A DNA stretch of 19,994 nt from a virus (taxonomy: Duplodnaviria; Heunggongvirae; Uroviricota; Caudoviricetes): IMG/VR virus record IMGVR_UViG_2695420538_000013; one strand, 5' to 3'. Both the position numbers and the translations under genes were made by a program. Shown here in pieces: positions 10,368-19,994 of the stretch. The notes beneath the pieces were generated by a model. The model was not told the origin of the DNA. It saw nothing but the letters and a program-made list of their open reading frames with translations, and did not search any database. Position 1 is the first letter of the stretch. Each line of letters begins with the position of its first letter.

Positions 10368-10434
10368 TGAAACAGGTGAGTTGAGTTCAAACTGTAGTAC
10401 AATTCTCTCCAGTTTGAACAGGAAAGAATATGCT

Positions 10435-10767
10435 ATGAACCCTTATATTTATCTTGGTGGTGCAATACTTGCAGAGGTCATTGGTACAACCTTAATGAAG
10501 TTTTCAGAAGGTTTTACACGGTTATGGCCATCTGTTGGTACAATTATTTGTTATTGTGCATCATTCTGGTTATTAGCTCAGACGCTGGCTTATATTCCTA
10601 CAGGGATTGCTTATGCTATCTGGTCAGGAGTCGGTATTGTCCTGATTAGCTTACTGTCATGGGGACTTTTCGACCAACGGCTGGACCTGCCAGCTATTAT
10701 AGGCATGATGTTGATTTGTGCCGGTGTGTTGGTTATTAATTTATTGTCACGAAGCACACCACATTAA
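10435..10767 (+). CDS. emrE: Small multidrug resistance (SMR) efflux transporter EmrE
   Basis: 110 aa from MNPYIYLGGAILAEVIGTTLMKFSEGFTRLWPSVG..., four TM helices with the conserved Glu14. The track ORF begins at an upstream TTG. Confidence 0.95.
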   Translation: MNPYIYLGGAILAEVIGTTLMKFSEGFTRLWPSVGTIICYCASFWLLAQTLAYIPTGIAYAIWSGVGIVLISLLSWGLFDQRLDLPAIIGMMLICAGVLVINLLSRSTPH

Positions 10768-10796
10768 AATAATTTGTTTCTAAACGACTAAAATAT

Positions 10797-10830
10797 GGAG
10801 GCTCTTATATTTATATGAGCCTCGTTTTAT
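10797..10830 (+). terminator. Rho-independent terminator downstream of emrE
   Basis: GGAGGCTC (10797-10804), 12-nt loop, GAGCCTC (10817-10823), then GTTTTATGCTTTTT. Confidence 0.6.
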
Positions 10831-11021
10831 GCTTTTTGTTAATGTCTTTATTTTTTATGTATTCTTTTGTGCTTTCAAGATTATGGCGTAAGAAAATTGC
10901 AATACGATTATTGTTGTATATTCAAGATAATGTGACCTTAATTGTCTTTTTAAATAAAAATTAAACAAAAATTATATCCCACCACTAAGGTTTATAAAAG
11001 CATACGTTAGCAGGTGTCACC

Positions 11022-12548
11022 ATGAAAAAAGCCATAGCATATATGCGATTTTCATCACCAGGTCAGATGTCTGGTGACTCATTAAACCGACAGAGAAGAC
11101 TTATTGCTGAATGGTTAAAGGTAAATAGTGATTATTATCTTGATACCATAACATATGAAGATTTAGGATTAAGTGCATTCAAAGGAAAGCATGCACAATC
11201 AGGAGCTTTTTCGGAATTTTTAGATGCTATAGAGCATGGTTATATATTGCCAGGAACTACATTGTTAGTTGAAAGTCTGGACAGACTTTCAAGAGAAAAA
11301 GTCGGTGAAGCGATTGAACGTCTGAAATTGATTTTGAATCACGGTATTGATGTTATAACTCTTTGCGACAATACAGTCTATAATATTGACTCTTTGAATG
11401 AGCCATATTCATTAATAAAAGCCATACTTATAGCACAAAGGGCAAATGAAGAAAGCGAGATAAAGTCAAGTCGGGTTAAATTATCATGGAAGAAAAAACG
11501 GCAGGATGCACTGGAATCAGGTACGATTATGACGGCGTCTTGTCCGAGATGGCTCTCCTTAGATGACAAAAGAACGGCTTTTGTTCCAGACCCCGACAGG
11601 GTGAAAACTATTGAGCTAATTTTTAAACTCAGGATGGAAAGGCGCTCATTGAATGCAATAGCCAAGTATTTAAATGATCATGCTGTAAAGAATTTCTCAG
11701 GAAAAGAAAGTGCATGGGGACCTTCTGTAATTGAAAAATTATTAGCGAATAAAGCTCTGATAGGTATATGCGTACCTTCATATCGTGCAAGAGGGAAAGG
11801 GATAAGTGAAATCGCTGGCTATTATCCCAGAGTCATATCAGATGATTTGTTTTACGCTGTACAGGAAATTCGGTTGGCACCTTTTGGTATTAGCAATAGT
11901 AGCAAGAATCCTATGCTAATAAATCTACTTCGAACAGTTATGAAGTGTGAGGCTTGTGGTAATACCATGATTGTTCATGCGGTATCTGGAAGTTTGCATG
12001 GCTATTATGTTTGTCCGATGAGAAGATTACATCGATGTGACAGGCCATCAATAAAAAGAGATTTGGTTGATTATAATATCATTAATGAATTGCTTTTTAA
12101 TTGTAGCAAAATTCAACCAGTTGAAAACAAGAAAGATGCTAATGAAACTTTAGAGTTAAAAATTATTGAGCTTCAGATGAAAATTAATAATTTAATCGTT
12201 GCATTGTCTGTCGCGCCTGAAGTTACCGCTATAGCAGAGAAAATAAGACTATTAGATAAGGAATTACGAAGGGCTTCGGTATCATTGAAAACTTTGAAGA
12301 GTAAAGGTGTAAATTCATTCAGTGATTTTTATACTATTGACTTAACCAGTAAAAATGGACGAGAGTTATGCCGTACACTTGCCTATAAAACATTCGAAAA
12401 AATCATAATTAATACGGATAATAAAACCTGTGATATTTATTTTATGAATGGCATTGTTTTTAAACACTATCCTTTAATGAAAGTAATATCCGCCCAGCAG
12501 GCGATAAGTGCTCTCAAATATATGGTTGATGGTGAGATTTATTTCTAA
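11022..12548 (+). CDS. ybcK: Large serine recombinase (resolvase/invertase N-terminal catalytic domain, recombinase domain, zinc-ribbon), YbcK-like
   Basis: 508 aa. N-terminal AIAYMRFSSPGQ...SLNRQR (catalytic Ser region), central recombinase domain, Cys cluster CEACGN...YYVCP...HRCD, and C-terminal coiled-coil-like region. Confidence 0.9.
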   Translation: MKKAIAYMRFSSPGQMSGDSLNRQRRLIAEWLKVNSDYYLDTITYEDLGLSAFKGKHAQSGAFSEFLDAIEHGYILPGTTLLVESLDRLSREKVGEAIERLKLILNHGIDVITLCDNTVYNIDSLNEPYSLIKAILIAQRANEESEIKSSRVKLSWKKKRQDALESGTIMTASCPRWLSLDDKRTAFVPDPDRVKTIELIFKLRMERRSLNAIAKYLNDHAVKNFSGKESAWGPSVIEKLLANKALIGICVPSYRARGKGISEIAGYYPRVISDDLFYAVQEIRLAPFGISNSSKNPMLINLLRTVMKCEACGNTMIVHAVSGSLHGYYVCPMRRLHRCDRPSIKRDLVDYNIINELLFNCSKIQPVENKKDANETLELKIIELQMKINNLIVALSVAPEVTAIAEKIRLLDKELRRASVSLKTLKSKGVNSFSDFYTIDLTSKNGRELCRTLAYKTFEKIIINTDNKTCDIYFMNGIVFKHYPLMKVISAQQAISALKYMVDGEIYF

Positions 12549-13012
12549 ATAATGATCTCGGATTTTAAGTTATGCTATGGTGATAAAGTGCAAGACAGAA
12601 TTAATTATCTTTGACGAAACTTAATGGGTAATTACTTTGTTTGCTCCCACAAGCGAGTTTTGTACGGCTGTATTGGGGTAGTAAATGAGCTATACAATCT
12701 TAATCATTTGTCAGGTGAGAACTCTTGGTCGCAGATTCAAATACTGAAAATACGTGACAAATTATTATGAGCAAAATGGTGTATGTCACGTATTTTGAAT
12801 GATAGGTTAAAAAATAACACCGACTTTCGTAGGTATTACTAATAATAAAGCAGAGTTTTTAGATAGTATCAATGTGCTTTGTGTATATTGTGGCAAATAA
12901 TTGGGTTGGGGGTACAATTGTGATTGCTTTTGCATAAAAATTGCGCCTTTATGCATAATGAGATAAAGGAATATCAAATAAAATAACGATAGGTCATAAC
13001 AAAGAGGTTTTT

Positions 13013-13564
13013 ATGAAAACACTTATCGTTTCAACTGTATTGGCATTCATAACATTTTCTGCGCAGGCTGCAGCATTTCAGGTCACTAGTAATGAAATAA
13101 AAACAGGAGAGCAACTTACAACGTCTCATGTCTTTTCTGGATTTGGGTGTGAAGGTGGTAATACATCGCCCTCATTAACCTGGTCTGGTGTTCCTGAAGG
13201 TACCAAAAGCTTTGCCGTAACTGTATATGATCCAGATGCACCTACAGGCAGTGGTTGGTGGCATTGGACTGTTGTTAATATTCCAGCAACAATAACATAT
13301 TTGCCCGTTGATGCAGGGAGACGTGATGGAACAAAACTGCCGACTGGTGCTGTTCAAGGCCGAAATGATTTTGGCTATGCTGGGTTTGGTGGCGCGTGTC
13401 CTCCTAAAGGAGATAAACCACATCATTACCAGTTTAAAGTATGGGCTCTAAAAACTGAAAAGATTCCTGTAGATTCTAACTCCAGCGGAGCGTTAGTTGG
13501 TTATATGCTTAATGCTAATAAAATCGCAACCGCTGAGATAACACCAGTTTATGAGATAAAGTAG
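13013..13564 (+). CDS. ybcL: Secreted PEBP/YbhB-YbcL family (UPF0098) protein
   Basis: 183 aa with signal peptide MKTLIVSTVLAFITFSAQAAA. PEBP motifs DPDAPTGSGWWHW and HHYQFKVWAL. AGAGG Shine-Dalgarno. Confidence 0.85.
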   Translation: MKTLIVSTVLAFITFSAQAAAFQVTSNEIKTGEQLTTSHVFSGFGCEGGNTSPSLTWSGVPEGTKSFAVTVYDPDAPTGSGWWHWTVVNIPATITYLPVDAGRRDGTKLPTGAVQGRNDFGYAGFGGACPPKGDKPHHYQFKVWALKTEKIPVDSNSSGALVGYMLNANKIATAEITPVYEIK

Positions 13565-13573
13565 GGTGAGAGT

Positions 13574-14371
13574 ATGCTGGCAAGAGGTAAGACTAACTTA
13601 AAGATCGAAGAAATACGGATGCATAAACATCATGAGATTCATAGGGTTAAGCCTCTTATGCCAGCTTTGTGTCGTATCCGTCAGGGAAAGAAAGTTATCA
13701 ATTGGGAGACGCATACTTTAACTGTTGATAATAATCAAATAATATTATTTCCTTGTGGTTATGAATTTTATATTGAGAATTATCCTGAAGCAGGGCTTTA
13801 TCTTGCAGAAATGCTTTACTTACCCATTGATTTAATTGAGAGTTTCCAAAAACTTTATACGGTAACTGATCAAATACGTAACAAAACAAGTTTCTTTTTA
13901 CCTCAGAATCCTGAGTTAATATATTGTTGGGAGCAACTAAAAACATCTGTTTCCCGAGGCTTCTCAACTAAAATTCAGGAGCACTTAGCAATGGGCGTTC
14001 TACTTTCGTTAGGAGTGAATCATGTTAATCATTTACTTTTATCATATAGTAAACAATCATTGATAAGTCGTTGTTATAACCTGCTGCTATCCGAACCCGG
14101 CACAAAATGGACAGCAAACAAGGTTGCTCGATATCTCTACATTTCTGTTTCTACATTACATCGCCGTCTAGCAAGCGAGGGGGTAAGTTTCCAAAGTATA
14201 CTGGACGATGTGAGGTTAAATAATGCGTTGTCTGCTATACAAACGACGGTAAAACCTATAAGCGAGATTGCCAGAGAAAATGGTTATAAGTGTCCTTCTC
14301 GTTTTACTGAAAGATTTCATAATCGTTTTAATATAACACCAAGAGAGATAAGAAAAGCTTCCAGAGAGTAA
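13574..14371 (+). CDS. ybcM: AraC/XylS-family transcriptional regulator YbcM-like
   Basis: 265 aa. C-terminal double HTH ([21 protein letters not shown]...[30 protein letters not shown]). Confidence 0.85.
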
Positions 14372-15211: not shown

Positions 15212-15494
15212 TTTGAGAAAAGCAGCGCGTGGTCGGGAATGCCAGGTAAGAATCCCTGGCGTATGTAATGGCAATTCTGAAACGTCTGTACTGGCACATA
15301 TCCGGCTGGCTGGATTGTGCGGTACCGGTATCAAACCGCCAGACCTGATTGCCACCATTGCATGTTCTGCCTGCCACGACGAAATCGACCGCCGCACACA
15401 TTTTGTCGATGCTGCATATGCAAAAGAATGCGCGCTGGAAGGTATGGCGAGAACACAGGTTATCTGGCTGAAAGAGGGGGTTATTAAGGCGTGA
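15204..15494 (+). CDS. ybcO: YbcO-family (DUF1364) Cys-rich putative nuclease
   Basis: 96 aa from [34 protein letters not shown]...[11 protein letters not shown]. The track ORF starts earlier at 15165. Confidence 0.8.
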
Positions 15495-15854
15495 ATACCT
15501 ACAGTATCACATTACCCTGGCCTCCGAGCAATAATCGCTATTACCGCCATAATCGCGGGCGCACGCACGTCAGTGCAGAGGGGGCAGGCATACCGCGATA
15601 ACGTCGCCCGAATCATTAAAAACGCAATGCTGGATATCGGCCTGGCTATGCCTGTGAAAATCCGCATTGAGTGCCACATGCCGGATCGCCGTAGCCGTGA
15701 CCTGGATAATCTGCAAAAAGCCGCTTTTGACGCACTCACTAAAGCAGGTTTCTGGCTGGATGATGCTCAGGTCGTTGATTACCGCGTTGTGAAGATGCCT
15801 GTTACCAAAGGTGGGAGGCTGGAACTGACCATCACCGAAATGGGGAATGAATGA
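15491..15854 (+). pseudogene. rusA: Holliday-junction resolvase RusA, disrupted by a +1 frameshift in a G5 run (15580-15584)
   Basis: The GTG-start frame gives (M)[30 protein letters not shown] and then stops. The remaining RusA sequence [36 protein letters not shown]...TITEMGNE continues in the next frame (track ORF 15573..15854). Confidence 0.75.
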
Positions 15855-15991: not shown

Positions 15992-16076
15992 AGTCAGAGA
16001 TAACAATCAACTAATACTGTTTTGTTGATTTTTGCTTGTAATTGGCGTTCTGGTCTGAGTTTTGTGGAGTAAGTTG

Positions 16077-16454
16077 ATGCGTGATATTCAGATGGTTCTT
16101 GAGCGTTGGGGAGCGTGGGCGGCTAATAATCATGAAGATGTGACCTGGTCGTCCATTGCCGCCGGTTTTAAGGGATTAATTCCTTCAAAAGTAAAATCTC
16201 GCCCGCAATGTTGTGACGATGACGCGATGATCATTTGCGGGTGCATGGCCCGTCTGAAAAAGAACAACAGCGATTTGCATGATTTATTGGTGGACTATTA
16301 TGTCGGCGGCATGACTTTTATGGCGCTTGCACGTAAGCATGGGCGATCTGATTGTTGGGTTGGCAGGATGCTCCAGAAAGCTGAGTGCGTAGTGGAGGGT
16401 ATGCTGATGGTGTTGGATCTCCGATTGGAGATGGATGCTGATTGTTCGAAATAA
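16077..16454 (+). CDS. quuD: Late-gene antiterminator Q (QuuD-like)
   Basis: [22 protein letters not shown]... with Cys-rich zinc-binding region ([16 protein letters not shown]). Positioned just upstream of the late promoter/terminator and lysis genes. The start may instead be the TTG one codon earlier (16074) or the TTG at 16062. Confidence 0.85.
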
Positions 16455-16466
16455 TTAAAGGAAAAG

Positions 16467-16495
16467 TTGCTGTCTGATTCTCATTAGTCTAACAT
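16467..16495 (+). promoter_or_regulatory. Candidate late promoter pR' (Q-utilisation region)
   Basis: TTGCTG (16467-16472), 17-bp spacer, TAACAT (16490-16495), located between Q and the terminator, followed by the near-palindrome AACATTTTAAATGTT. Confidence 0.25.
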
Positions 16496-16552
16496 TTTAA
16501 ATGTTGGAATCGCAACGTAGTTATTATCATATAACAGCTTGTTTCCTGATTT

Positions 16553-16582
16553 AGCCAGCCTCCCCAAAGGCTGGTTTTTTTC
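16553..16582 (+). terminator. Rho-independent terminator (tR'-like) downstream of Q and its promoter region
   Basis: AGCCAGCC, loop TCCCCAAA, GGCTGG, followed by a T7 run (16575-16581). Confidence 0.7.
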
Positions 16583-16609
16583 TAATAAGTATTATTTCGG
16601 GTAGGGATT

Positions 16610-17134
16610 TTATTGTTTAACCCATAATAATTCATTGACATTGAATCCCAACTTTTGAGCGGTTCGCACATAGTCTGCTTTTACTTTATCTGGAATAGTT
16701 GGGGTCCTTGCCAGAATCCATAGGTATTCTCTGTTCGGACCACTGACAAGAGCATACTTATACTCATCATCCAGTTTGATTACATTATAGCCACCATAGA
16801 AGGGGCCAAAAAACGAAACCTTCAACGCTGCAGTTTTAGTATCTCCAGTAAAGTATGCTTTACCTTCGCTCTCGCTCCATTTATTTTTCGTTGGATCGTA
16901 TCCACGGTTAAGTACACGAATCCCTCCGTCGTTCCGTTTTCCATAGGTAGCGCTGACCTGTTCCAGACCACGTTCGAACCGGTTCTCGAGGCGAGCTATT
17001 TCATACCATTTTCCGAGGTAGCGGTTGGCGTCAAAATTTGTAATCGGCTGCACACCTTTAGGTGGTGTCGGGGCCTTACATGCTATAAGAGTGAAAGAGA
17101 GTGCAATGCCAGTCAACACAGGCCATAACTTCAT
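16610..17134 (-). CDS. Bacterial lipocalin (Blc-like) outer-membrane lipoprotein
   Basis: 174 aa with lipoprotein signal and lipobox LIAC (MKLWPVLTGIALSFTLIACKAP). Lipocalin motifs NFDANRYLGKWYEIARLENRFERG and KVSFFGPFYGGYNVIKLD. Diverged from, not identical to, my recollection of chromosomal Blc. Confidence 0.85.
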   Translation of the reverse strand: MKLWPVLTGIALSFTLIACKAPTPPKGVQPITNFDANRYLGKWYEIARLENRFERGLEQVSATYGKRNDGGIRVLNRGYDPTKNKWSESEGKAYFTGDTKTAALKVSFFGPFYGGYNVIKLDDEYKYALVSGPNREYLWILARTPTIPDKVKADYVRTAQKLGFNVNELLWVKQ

Positions 17135-17326
17135 AATAAATCCTGTACTTTTGATAGTTGAGAGTAAGTATGAAAGATAGATGATTACGACCGATCACTT
17201 AAAGAACTTTCATACTATATTAGGAATAGTCTATAACAGAAAAATTGTCAGTGATGACGCCAGAAAGGCAATTTATTCCGTGCACTACACAGTTTATGTG
17301 TTAATGAATTAGTCAAGGGGGAGAAT

Positions 17327-18286
17327 ATGATAAAAAAACCTGTGATTGGAATCAGCGGTTGTTTGGCCGGCTCTGCTGTTCGTTTTGATGGTGGTCACAA
17401 AAGAGCTGACTTTTTAATGGACAAATTAGTGGAATGGGTAACATTCAGACCAGTATGTCCGGAAATGGCTATAGGGCTGCCAGTTCCGCGTCCTGCTCTA
17501 CGTCTTGTGCGCTCGACGCAAGGAAATATACGGATGTGTTTCAGCCACGACCAGAATGAGGATGTGACAGAGAGAATGACAGAGTTTAGTCGTTCTTATA
17601 TGGACAAATTAAAGGATGTATCGGGGTTTGTGGTTTGTGCTAAATCTCCCAGCTGTGGCATGGAGCGCGTGCGTGTCTATGATGAAAATGGTAATCGAGG
17701 TCGTAAAGATGGAGTGGGACTATTTACGAGCACTTTGATGGAAAAGTTTTCCTGGCTACCGGTTGAAGAGGATGGGCGATTACATGATCCAGTGCTTCGT
17801 GAGAATTTTGTTGAAAGAGTTTTTGCTTTGCATGAGCTCAATCACCTTTACAAGGAGAAATTATCAAGAAGAGAGTTATTAGCTTTTCATAGTCGTTATA
17901 AGCTTCAGTTGTTGGCGCATAGTCAGGCAGGCTATAAAGATATGGGACCATTTGTGGCTGCAATACACGAGTGGGCGGACCTTGAATCATACTTTGAGGT
18001 GTATCGTGATAAGCTGATGGCGATTCTCAGAAAACCTGCATCACGTAAAAATCACACGAATGTGCTGATGCATATACAGGGGTATTTTAGTAACTACTTA
18101 AGTACACGCCAGCGTAAAGAGTTGAGCGAGGTTATACTTAACTATCGTTCTGGCACATTACCTCTTCTTGCGCCGTTGACTCTGCTGAAGCATTATCTGG
18201 GTGAGTATCCTAATGATTACTTGCTTACACAGAATTACTTCGATCCCTATCCGGACGAACTGGCTCTAAGACTGATGGTAAATTAA
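17327..18286 (+). CDS. DUF523 (TudS-type Fe-S desulfidase) fused to DUF1722 (YbgA-like) protein; candidate RudS-like thionucleoside/tRNA desulfidase
   Basis: 319 aa with AAGGGGGAG Shine-Dalgarno. N-terminal half has conserved Cys residues (GISGCLAGS, VCPEMAIGLP, VVCAKSPSCGMERV) as in DUF523; C-terminal half resembles YbgA/DUF1722. Domain assignment from memory, not a search. Confidence 0.75.
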   Translation: MIKKPVIGISGCLAGSAVRFDGGHKRADFLMDKLVEWVTFRPVCPEMAIGLPVPRPALRLVRSTQGNIRMCFSHDQNEDVTERMTEFSRSYMDKLKDVSGFVVCAKSPSCGMERVRVYDENGNRGRKDGVGLFTSTLMEKFSWLPVEEDGRLHDPVLRENFVERVFALHELNHLYKEKLSRRELLAFHSRYKLQLLAHSQAGYKDMGPFVAAIHEWADLESYFEVYRDKLMAILRKPASRKNHTNVLMHIQGYFSNYLSTRQRKELSEVILNYRSGTLPLLAPLTLLKHYLGEYPNDYLLTQNYFDPYPDELALRLMVN

Positions 18287-18637
18287 TTGTATGCGATATC
18301 ATCCAAAAGGATGAGTTCCTGCATGCAGGATATTTACAATCGTAAAAACTACACTATGATACCCAGAGTGTCAGTTTGTATAAAAACTCTGTTTACGCTG
18401 AAGAAACCATTGAGATGCAACTTAAAGTTGGTAAACATGCCAGTCAAAATATATAATATTATGATTCCACGCAGCTATATATAATATAACAGATTGGTTT
18501 AATAATTTGTCTTTGTGAGTTAAATACATAATTTTATACTTGTGATGCAATGAGATTTTCCTTATTGTTGAACTGGCGAATATTGATTTTCCACCTATAC
18601 TTACCTGGTGTAACCCCAATGATATCAGGTGGATAAT

Positions 18638-19369
18638 ATGCCATACATATGTTCTATCATTTTGGTGTTGAACTCGTTTGATGTCCGAATTGGTAAAGAA
18701 GATATTTTGTTTAAAAAAGGAAGTGCTGTTCTCATTGATTACAATTTAAAAGATTTTTTTTCATCAAATATAGATCATGTAATGATCGTAGATGTTGAAG
18801 AGAAAACAGTTAATGATTTCTTTAAAAGCAACACACTCTCACCTTTTTCTGTAAGAAGGTTTTATCCGGCATACTTGATGGTGGAATGTGAAGATTTTTC
18901 ATTGTTAAAGAACTTGATTGCATGCTTGAATTGTGATGGCAGAACTGTGGATTTTGTTAGAAATCAAATATCACTTGCATGTCTTGCTATCTTATCTTCA
19001 GAGAAAATAGTGCAAAGTTTTTTATTTGGATGTCTTAATAGTTTAGGAAGTAAAGTTAAGGCTATTATTCACACGGATATATCTGCAGCATGGAGACTTT
19101 GTGATATATCTTCAAGACTGTATCTGAGTGAAAGTCTGTTAAAAAGAAAATTAAAGCACGAAGGCTTATCATTTAGTAAGTTAATTCTTGAAGAGCGAAT
19201 GGTGATGGCGGAAAGGTTATTAAGCTACAATTTATATTCTGTTGGAAAAGTTGCTGAGATATGCGGTTATGAAAACACGTCATATTTTGTGAGTGTTTTC
19301 AGAAGATATTTTGGTGTTCCTCCCCATCAATATTCATCAAGACTTTTTTTAGAAAAAGACATGATGTAA
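18638..19369 (+). CDS. AraC-family transcriptional regulator, AppY/EnvY-like, in AT-rich DNA
   Basis: From MPYICSIILVLNSFDV... (AGGTGG Shine-Dalgarno 5 nt upstream; the track ORF begins at GTG 18629). C-terminal AraC double HTH (WRLCDISSRLYLSESLLKRKLKHEGLSFSKL...VAEICGYENTSYFVSVFRRYFGVPP). N-terminus resembles what I recall of AppY. Confidence 0.8.
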   Translation: MPYICSIILVLNSFDVRIGKEDILFKKGSAVLIDYNLKDFFSSNIDHVMIVDVEEKTVNDFFKSNTLSPFSVRRFYPAYLMVECEDFSLLKNLIACLNCDGRTVDFVRNQISLACLAILSSEKIVQSFLFGCLNSLGSKVKAIIHTDISAAWRLCDISSRLYLSESLLKRKLKHEGLSFSKLILEERMVMAERLLSYNLYSVGKVAEICGYENTSYFVSVFRRYFGVPPHQYSSRLFLEKDMM

Positions 19370-19557
19370 CGTGATGCGTTTTAATGATTTTGTAATTTTC
19401 GTATTTGATAATTGTATGATGCTTTCAGCTACGCCAGAATAATCGCTGGCGTTTTTCTTTTTGAATAGATGTTCAAGCCTTACGCTAATGTAACTTCTAT
19501 ACCTTTCCTCTTCGTTCCGAACCGTGTACACCATCCGTTATTTGCGGAGGTGAGGCT

Positions 19558-19773
19558 ATGAAATCCATGGATAAGTTAACAACGGGCATTGCCTACGGCA
19601 CCTCCGCAGGCAGTGCTGGCTACTGGTTTTTACAGCTGCTCGATAAAGTCACGCCCTCACAGTGGGCAGCAATAGGTGTGCTGGGTAGCTTGGTATTTGG
19701 CTTGCTGACGTACCTGACAAACCTTTATTTCAAGATTAAAGAAGATAAGCGCAAGGCTGCGAGAGGTGAATAA
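19558..19773 (+). CDS. Phage 21-type class II holin (pinholin S21-like)
   Basis: 71 aa [71 protein letters not shown]. Dual-start MKSM motif, two TM segments, GGAGGTG Shine-Dalgarno. Confidence 0.9.
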
Positions 19774-19994
19774 TGCCTCCATCATTACGAAAAGCCGTTG
19801 CTGCTGCTATTGGTGGCGGAGCAATTGCTATAGCATCAGTGTTAATCACTGGCTCAAGTGGTAACGATGGTCTGGAGGGTGTCAGCTACATACCATACAA
19901 AGATATTGTTGGTGTATGGACTGTATGTCACGGGCATACAGGAAAAGACATCATGCTCGGTAAAACGTATACCAAAGCAGAATGCAAAACACAC
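19773..19994 (+). CDS. SAR (signal-anchor-release) endolysin, R21-like lysozyme; 3' end beyond window
   Basis: [57 protein letters not shown]...: Gly/Ala-rich SAR domain then lysozyme N-terminus. Start overlaps the holin stop (TAATG). Confidence 0.9.

Follow-up and report, generated by a model that had tools for sequence, protein, structure and literature searches.

A prophage-borne AraC-like regulator of the PatE/Psr clade, carried between Q and the holin gene in Escherichia coli, with a predicted link to acid resistance

Introduction

The prophage AraC-like regulators AppY, PatE, and PsrA/PsrB are the best-documented phage cargo known to rewire core stress regulons of Escherichia coli, and they have been studied only in strain K-12 and in enterohemorrhagic E. 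coli (EHEC) O157. PatE (Z0321/ECs0287), encoded in O-island 8 (CP-933H/Sp1) of E. coli O157:H7, activates gadB, gadC, gadE, and hdeAB. Both PatE and PsrB activate gadE and hdeA, whose promoters PsrB binds; PsrA and PsrB act via gadE and yhiF, and patE is expressed in step with rpoS (PMC10877973, review). AppY binds the gadE and gadY promoters and activates both genes, and appY is itself under RpoS, H-NS, and ArcA control (PMC10057817). Here, we analyze a gene for an AraC-family regulator of 243 amino acids (positions 18638 to 19369, plus strand) in a viral sequence of 19,994 nucleotides (IMG/VR record IMGVR_UViG_2695420538_000013), the whole of which we refer to as the window. A sequence-only reading of the window had described positions 18287 to 19369 as an AppY-like regulator in AT-rich DNA that may rewire host regulons in lysogens.

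Comparison with the described systems leads us to a reading that we hold with somewhat more confidence than doubt. The gene would encode a functional activator of the PatE/Psr clade, carried as a self-contained moron in the slot between the antiterminator gene Q and the holin gene, expressed in lysogens, and directed at gadE and hdeAB.

Relationship to described regulators

In the predicted protein, a beta-rich domain at the N terminus is joined through a helical linker to a double helix-turn-helix (HTH) domain at the C terminus (approximately residues 136 to 235). Pfam models HTH_18 (E 1.1e-14, 54.9 bits, cutoff 33.6) and HTH_AraC (E 2.1e-11, 44.1 bits, cutoff 26.6) match residues 161 to 237, and the C-terminal region of about 100 residues carries the two HTH motifs that define the AraC/XylS family. 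The match to PHROG 1450 covers the full protein (E 9e-107). Paralogues from K-12 and O157 were taken from annotated records and compared by BLASTP. PatE is the closest (54% identity, residues 1 to 235), followed by PsrA (ECs1087; 47% over the C-terminal 163 residues), whereas GadW, YdeO, and AppY align over their full length at 34%, 32%, and 31%, respectively. GadX (41%) aligns in the HTH domain only, and the EnvY alignment (30%, residues 43 to 232) is conserved mostly in that domain. Alignments to PatE, GadW, AppY, and YdeO run from residue 1 to about residue 235 (E 1e-37 to 2e-87), which places the regulator by whole-length similarity in the GadW/YdeO/AppY/PatE/Psr subfamily. The earlier descriptions "AppY-like" and "AppY/EnvY/GadX-type" therefore hold at the level of the subfamily shared with AppY, but AppY is not the closest relative, and good agreement with EnvY and GadX is confined to the DNA-binding domain.

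Residues tied to the subfamily are retained. In an alignment of 10 sequences, M1, C5, and S6 of the N-terminal M-x3-C-S motif are invariant, and K169 of the regulator, which is a lysine in all 10, aligns with K170 of AppY, the residue whose replacement (K170E) abolishes DNA binding (PMC10057817). The DNA-binding domain is 72% identical to that of PatE, and the first recognition helix (SESLLKRKLK) is the same in both proteins. In the AlphaFold2 model (pLDDT 81, pTM 0.65), the C-terminal domain superimposes on the DNA-binding domain of GadX (3mkl) with TM scores of 0.85 to 0.88 and a root mean square deviation of 1.4 to 1.6 Å at 41% identity. The best Foldseek matches of the full-length model are Rns, CsvR, and ToxT (E 2e-11 to 1e-8, TM 0.50 to 0.58), virulence regulators with a fatty-acid-binding N-terminal domain. 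They share the same two-domain architecture at 16 to 20% identity, and their targets (pili and toxin genes) are unrelated.

By these sequence comparisons, the regulator belongs, as an uncharacterized member, to the PatE/Psr clade of prophage-encoded proteins, a part of the GadW/YdeO/AppY subfamily. It is not an allele of patE: besides the 54% identity, dN, the nonsynonymous divergence between the two genes, is 0.43 and dS, the synonymous divergence, is saturated. We place it accordingly in a paralogous clade that is sister to PatE. In common with the regulator, PatE is prophage-borne and AT-rich (35% G+C), and a TATACTT -10 element precedes its start codon by a comparable distance. The O157 protein was recognized as PatE from its setting, in which pinE, a 774-bp gene, the 744-bp regulator gene, an IS3 fragment, and the Sp2 integrase gene mark the end of prophage Sp1 (O-island 8) of strain Sakai. 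This patE copy sits beside pinE and an insertion sequence (IS) fragment at the end of a decayed prophage, whereas an orthologue of PatE (P0015 of locus L012; dN 0.08 and dS 0.50 against PatE) occupies the same Q-to-holin slot, and is followed by the same terminator, as the window regulator. The latter differs from PatE in having a longer leader and an additional distal promoter-like site, and in traveling with blc-like and ybgA-like genes.

The remaining relatives are further removed. PsrA and PsrB (Z1789/ECs1087 and Z2104; O-islands 50 and 57) are AraC-like, lie in lambdoid prophages, and are encoded 3' of a Q antiterminator gene, as the window regulator is. However, they are more distant than PatE and are linked in EHEC to effector loci, tRNA genes, and pch regulators. 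Their read-out, repression of type III secretion encoded by LEE (locus of enterocyte effacement), may be irrelevant to the host of the window, which matches a urine isolate. AppY (b0564) is prophage-borne in DLP12 of K-12, equally low in G+C (31.7%), and has the conserved DNA-binding lysine, and the window prophage is itself DLP12-like. In DLP12, however, appY is at the right end past the tail-fiber genes, whereas the window regulator is in the slot that nmpC occupies in K-12. GadW, YdeO, and GadX are chromosomal acid-resistance regulators, in contrast to the window regulator, which is mobile, phage-borne, and outside the acid-fitness island.

A self-contained unit in the Q-to-holin slot

The regulator gene lies between Q (16062 to 16454, plus strand) and the gene for a class II holin (19558 to 19773, plus strand), as both Pfam and RefSeq annotation confirm, so that its assignment to a late-gene moron in the sequence-only reading was correct. 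A blc-like gene (16610 to 17134, minus strand) and a ybgA-like gene (17327 to 18286, plus strand) precede it in the same slot. Base composition separates the regulator from both. Its coding sequence has 32.0% G+C and the leader in front of it 32.5%, against 43.5% in the ybgA-like gene, 44.2% in the blc-like gene, and 44.8% in the window, and the fall coincides with the ybgA stop codon. The description of this DNA as strongly AT-rich is thus borne out over about 1.1 kb. Divergence between alleles changes at the same stop codon, with identities of 95 to 98% in the blc-like gene and 92 to 98% in the ybgA-like gene, 83 to 89% in the regulator gene, and 75 to 80% plus indels in the leader.

More distant alleles stand alone. 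P0013 (64% identity, locus L011) and P0015 (56%, L012) are encoded directly 3' of Q genes that belong to two other Pfam families, and neither blc nor ybgA is present. In L012 the holin gene follows directly, and in L011 the contig stops just past the regulator gene. The psrA gene is likewise 3' of a Q gene. Since alleles occur alone between Q and holin, and since the module boundary falls at the ybgA stop codon, we consider the regulator and its leader an independent unit that has repeatedly entered this slot and has no fixed link to its blc-like and ybgA-like neighbors. The position, the low G+C content, the conserved -10 element and terminator described below, and the presence of nmpC in the corresponding K-12 slot are those of a phage moron, with promoter (predicted), gene, and terminator of its own.

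One side observation concerns the O157 copy of patE. The region upstream of it in Sakai (L006:18800-19101) aligns with the Q-to-AraC region of the intact lambdoid prophage L012 (4761-5000), including a degenerate terminator hairpin. Because of this alignment, the patE gene of Sp1 looks like a displaced Q-to-holin cargo unit.

Start codon, leader, and transcription signals

The mechanical open reading frame (ORF) used in the sequence-only reading began at GTG 18629. We take ATG 18638 as the start instead, because this is the RefSeq start (WP_001146309.1, 243 amino acids) and because the GTG sits inside a Shine-Dalgarno (SD) sequence, AGGTGG (18627 to 18632, plus strand), 5 nucleotides upstream of the ATG; the GTG start is thus probably wrong. 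The SD sequence is kept in five of six aligned alleles and reads GGGGGG in PatE. The AT-rich leader, reported earlier as 350 bp, proved to be 351 bp of noncoding DNA (18287 to 18637, plus strand), and it is the fastest-diverging part of the region except for a few conserved blocks. We regard it as noncoding because its 65-amino-acid ORFs, one on each strand, have no Pfam match and are disrupted by frameshifting indels in other alleles. An Rfam search of positions 16000 to 19994 returned nothing near a gathering score, and no family matched the leader.

Across six aligned alleles, PatE included, the only leader elements kept are an invariant TATACTT (18596 to 18602), the TGG of a weak -35 element 17 to 18 nucleotides upstream, and the SD sequence with the start region. 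The first two make up a candidate proximal promoter, P2 (18573 to 18601, plus strand), in which -35 CTGGCG (18573 to 18578) is followed by a 17-nucleotide spacer and -10 TATACT (18596 to 18601), itself preceded by C. The extended -10 region, CCTATACTTAC (18594 to 18604), agrees at 9 of 11 positions with the sigma-S consensus TCTATACTTAA (PMC3367168), including the C at -13. In psrA, CTATAAT occurs at the same distance from the start, provided that this is counted from the in-frame ATG at L007 18677 rather than from the annotated start at 18803. We infer that P2 is a sigma-S-type promoter with a transcription start near 18608. A distal promoter-like site, P1 (18333 to 18360, plus strand; TTTACA, 16 nucleotides, TATGAT; 10 of 12 consensus positions in a promoter scan), stands out by conservation in the four blc/ybgA-linked alleles, where 27 of 30 columns (18331 to 18360) are invariant between flanks that are 75 to 80% identical. 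The distant alleles L011, L012, and PatE lack this site. If used, P1 would give a 5' untranslated region of about 270 nucleotides. Another site with 10 of 12 consensus positions (18428 to 18457) is probably due to chance; L008 has an insertion of about 54 nucleotides there, and the site is missing in L009.

Two intrinsic terminators were predicted by a terminator scan. The first resembles tR' (16553 to 16576, plus strand; 9-bp stem and T-run), lies about 100 nucleotides after Q, in the place predicted for a lambdoid tR', and is also just beyond the 3' end of the convergent blc-like gene. By analogy with lambdoid late operons, it would halt late-promoter transcripts before the cargo in a lysogen. 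The second (19431 to 19452, plus strand) follows the regulator gene and has a G+C-rich stem of 7 bp before TTTTTCTTTTT. Its hairpin has a folding energy of -12.3 kcal/mol (z -1.75), and stem and T-run are kept in all four aligned alleles, among them the PatE-like L012.

The leader also contains a diverged duplicate of DNA found just 3' of Q. Positions 18468 to 18508 (plus strand) share 31 of 40 positions with 16514 to 16552, the segment 5' of the tR'-like terminator. The alignment score of 31 was reached in none of 500 shuffles (18.9 ± 2.4). The duplicate is present in L008 and deleted in L009 and L010, and K-12 DLP12 has a related ATATAACAG core after quuD. It is probably a relic of an earlier place directly behind a Q gene, and may represent a piece of a late-promoter region carried along with the moving regulator module or a recombination joint.

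A hairpin sequestering the SD sequence, or an RNA thermometer, was considered and rejected. CCACCU (18591 to 18596) pairs with AGGUGG in a 91-nucleotide fold with a z score of only -1.3, and the pairing is missing from the minimum-energy fold of the 294-nucleotide leader (z -0.3). CCACCU is not kept in L011, L012, or PatE, the first two of which retain the SD sequence, and no compensatory changes were seen. Its conservation among close alleles can be explained by its location in the P2 spacer.

The low G+C content over about 1.1 kb is that expected of a xenogeneic locus silenced by H-NS, and it is from this composition that we propose H-NS control of the regulator gene. The window contains 19 matches to TCGATAAATT, the high-affinity H-NS motif, where 28 would be expected; the absence of this motif from the locus itself, to which we return below, neither supports nor excludes H-NS binding. 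The AppY 8-mer ATGSCWGM, a proxy as the only related motif available, occurs once in the coding sequence (18936) and neither in the leader nor in the divergent promoter of the blc-like and ybgA-like genes (17135 to 17326). Its 11 matches in the window against 6.2 expected are no useful enrichment.

Selection, prevalence, and an intragenic mosaic

The gene is intact, and Nei-Gojobori comparisons show that it is under purifying selection, with pairwise ratios of nonsynonymous to synonymous substitution rates (dN/dS) of 0.13 to 0.26 in every allele comparison with unsaturated dS. The exact protein sequence occurs on at least 1,000 contigs, where the name "glutamate-dependent acid resistance regulator" is a label from one source. 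Positions 16000 to 19994, which comprise Q, the three cargo genes, the holin gene, and the start of the lysozyme gene, are covered over at least 80% of their length in 979 of 5,426 complete E. coli genomes. The leader and regulator gene are covered in 976 (about 18%), and the blc-like and ybgA-like genes in 1,045. IS insertions and truncated copies (H50, H70, P0011, and P0014) were seen in some genomes.

The cassette is also present in isolated temperate phages, namely, IdasGreatGrand (98.8% amino acid identity) and the Lambda_ev/1H12 series (82%), and further coliphages (mEp332, PhiR70_1, ev099, and phiSTEC1575-Stx2k) carry PatE-like or more divergent members of the family.

A separate observation suggests a recombination breakpoint within the gene. 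Between 18638-19369 and the Qin-like allele L008:4406-5119, dS is 0.10 in the N-terminal domain and 0.78 in the DNA-binding domain, whereas against L009 it is alike in both halves (0.42 and 0.34).

Proposed mechanism and alternative explanations

By analogy with its relatives, the regulator probably acts on host regulons. In a lysogen, transcripts from the late promoter would end at the tR'-like terminator behind Q, and the AraC gene would then be read from its own promoters, chiefly the proximal one with the sigma-S-type extended -10. On this reading, the gene would be expressed more strongly in stationary-phase or stressed cells, probably in opposition to silencing of its AT-rich region by H-NS. 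The protein would bind AT-rich promoter DNA through its double HTH domain and activate host genes, of which gadE and hdeAB in the acid-fitness island are the likeliest by homology with PatE, PsrB, and AppY, and the outcome would be higher acid resistance. Activation of the gadE/hdeA acid-fitness regulon in stationary phase is, from homology, the most likely role. During lytic growth, Q-modified RNA polymerase would pass both terminators and cotranscribe the AraC gene with the late operon.

Several findings weigh against this account. The second recognition helix (NTSYFVSVFRR) differs from that of PatE (SVSYFTYVFRR) at 4 of 11 positions, so that specificity may differ as well, and the N-terminal domain is just 40% identical to that of PatE. 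The best NCBIfam model, the YdeO equivalog NF007407 (residues 4 to 237), falls far short of its cutoff (126.8 versus 348 bits); the GadX model scores 85.7 bits against a cutoff of 500. The -35 element of P2 is poor (3 of 6 positions), and promoter-like matches are not enriched over shuffled sequence (13 versus 10.8 ± 3.6), so that the case for P1 and P2 rests on their conservation. There is no match to TCGATAAATT with up to two mismatches in 18287 to 19369. In the literature searched, we found no paper treating this allele.

A preprint (10.1101/2025.08.01.668021) reports higher acid survival upon overexpression of "PatE (CIW80_12240)" in E. coli Nissle 1917, but the identity of that gene was not established and we made no use of the result. 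CIW80_RS12240 is bcsZ in RefSeq, the two sets of tags do not line up (dinF has 15360 in the preprint and RS15205 in RefSeq), and the gene in question may be gadW or gadX.

The strongest competing idea is that the protein is a local regulator of its blc-like and ybgA-like neighbors, acting through the divergent promoter between them. AraC-family regulators often control adjacent divergent operons, and in E. coli the three genes are nearly always found together, as the genome counts above indicate. In addition, a lipocalin identical to the blc product (WP_000780581.1) occurs in a proteome, evidence that the module is expressed in lysogens. Nevertheless, the distant alleles, PatE, and PsrA all lack blc and ybgA, and a boundary in identity (92 to 98% versus 83 to 89%) and in G+C content (43.5% versus 32%) runs between the modules. 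The motif link to the divergent promoter that the sequence-only reading had proposed also found no support: the divergent promoter and the leader share no convincing sequence, and the AppY 8-mer is absent from both. We therefore regard local control as unlikely. An AppY orthologue, as the earlier label implied, would instead govern the responses to anaerobiosis and phosphate starvation together with the hya and app/cbd operons. The shared subfamily, length class, N-terminal motif, and DNA-binding lysine agree with this, as does the equally AT-rich, prophage-borne setting of appY. However, at 31% identity the two are not each other's best match (AppY finds GadW, and the regulator finds PatE), the AppY gene lies in the right arm of DLP12 beside ompT and not between Q and holin, and ATGSCWGM is not usefully enriched in the window, all of which makes orthology very improbable.

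The regulator could also serve the phage, being made from the Q-antiterminated late transcript to modulate host or phage transcription in lytic growth and being irrelevant in the lysogen. Its location on the same strand within the late transcription unit, from Q/tR' to the holin gene, and the post-Q relic in its leader fit such a role. Yet a conserved -10 and terminator of its own are hallmarks of morons expressed in lysogens, PatE has been kept in a decayed prophage that lacks adjacent Q or lysis genes, and the characterized relatives show phenotypes in uninduced lysogens; we give this explanation very little chance. Slightly less probable still is that the gene is silent, decaying cargo without current function. 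AT-rich DNA likely to be bound by H-NS, together with the IS insertions and truncated copies in some genomes, could be read in this way, but dN/dS remains low in allele comparisons until dS saturates, about 18% of complete genomes carry an uninterrupted ORF, and the DNA-binding residues, -10, SD sequence, and terminator are all conserved. An elaboration that we consider quite unlikely is cargo whose output is set by transcript type and by fatty-acid sensing. A short sigma-S transcript from P2 would be translated freely in stressed lysogens, whereas long transcripts, from P1 or by Q read-through, can carry CCACCU to pair with the SD sequence and damp translation, and the modeled N-terminal domain, which resembles those of Rns and ToxT, might detect fatty acids of the gut. 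In extraintestinal pathogenic E. coli, which lacks the LEE system through which the EHEC relatives were studied, acid resistance would thereby respond to both host lipid cues and growth phase. Weighing these alternatives, we retain the account of a lysogen-expressed PatE/Psr-clade activator of host acid-fitness genes.

Prophage context and neighboring genes

The gene order of the matching RefSeq record identifies the window as an intact lambdoid E. coli prophage resembling DLP12. Positions 16000 to 19994 are 100% identical, over a match of 3,993 bases, to NZ_CP038505 (strain 28Eco12, a urine isolate), whose prophage is annotated with integrase, exo/bet/gam, repressor, O/P, emrE, ybcK, ybcL, ybcM, ybcN, ninE, ybcO, rusA, ylcG, and Q, followed by the three cargo genes, essD, rrrD, rzpD, iss, and a full complement of head and tail genes. 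K-12 DLP12 has the same order from emrE through ylcG and Q to essD, but with nmpC where the window prophage has the AraC-family cargo.

The upstream edge of the slot is the QuuD-like Q (Pfam Phage_antitermQ, E 3e-50; RefSeq "antiterminator Q family protein"), and the downstream edge is the holin of the EssD/phage 21 S type (Pfam Phage_holin_2_1, E 2e-35; RefSeq essD). The blc-like gene encodes an outer-membrane lipocalin (Pfam Lipocalin_2, E 7e-44; NCBIfam Blc subfamily, 316 bits, cutoff 267). WP_000780581.1, the product assigned to this gene in the matching reference record, was found in the proteome of a carbapenem-resistant E. coli strain and increased 2- to 3-fold with meropenem (PMC13459554), from which we conclude that this cargo gene is expressed in lysogens. 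The ybgA-like product (319 amino acids) fuses a TudS/DUF523 2-thiouracil desulfurase domain (PF04463, E 3e-40) to DUF1722 (PF08349, E 2e-40). K-12 YbgA-type proteins in RefSeq have DUF1722 only, and the desulfurase fusion is unusual metabolic cargo for a late-operon slot.

Elsewhere in the window, ybcM (13574 to 14371, plus strand) is a second AraC-family gene, in DNA of 35 to 37% G+C, with a product identical to K-12 YbcM, the regulon of which is uncharacterized (PMC10057817). YbcM and the regulator encoded at 18638 to 19369 are 22% identical, in the HTH domain only. RefSeq reports rusA (15491 to 15854, plus strand) as frameshifted in the identical genome, and the window keeps a 93-amino-acid ORF (15573 to 15854) of this 120-amino-acid gene. 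An AT-rich block in the early region (10400 to 13200; 31 to 36% G+C, with persistently positive GC skew) spans emrE, ylcJ, and ybcK and is another compositionally foreign insert. At its left end (1 to 639), the window shows that the prophage is integrated beside espL1 (L001:742-2640), which encodes an effector of type III secretion; the strain that the window matches is a urine isolate.

Significance

The regulator described here is uncharacterized and extends a known pattern without a new mechanism. Its prevalence outside EHEC makes a modest follow-up worthwhile, given that the allele is found in about one-sixth of complete E. coli genomes, many of clinical origin, human urine included, and is also carried by temperate phages that can be induced. 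The comparison presents the family as one portable promoter-gene-terminator unit that has landed repeatedly in the Q-to-holin slot, the slot of the Shiga toxin genes, with O157 PatE as a displaced copy. If the regulator activates the acid-fitness island in the manner of its relatives, acid resistance conferred by phages, and transferable horizontally with them, would be common far outside EHEC.

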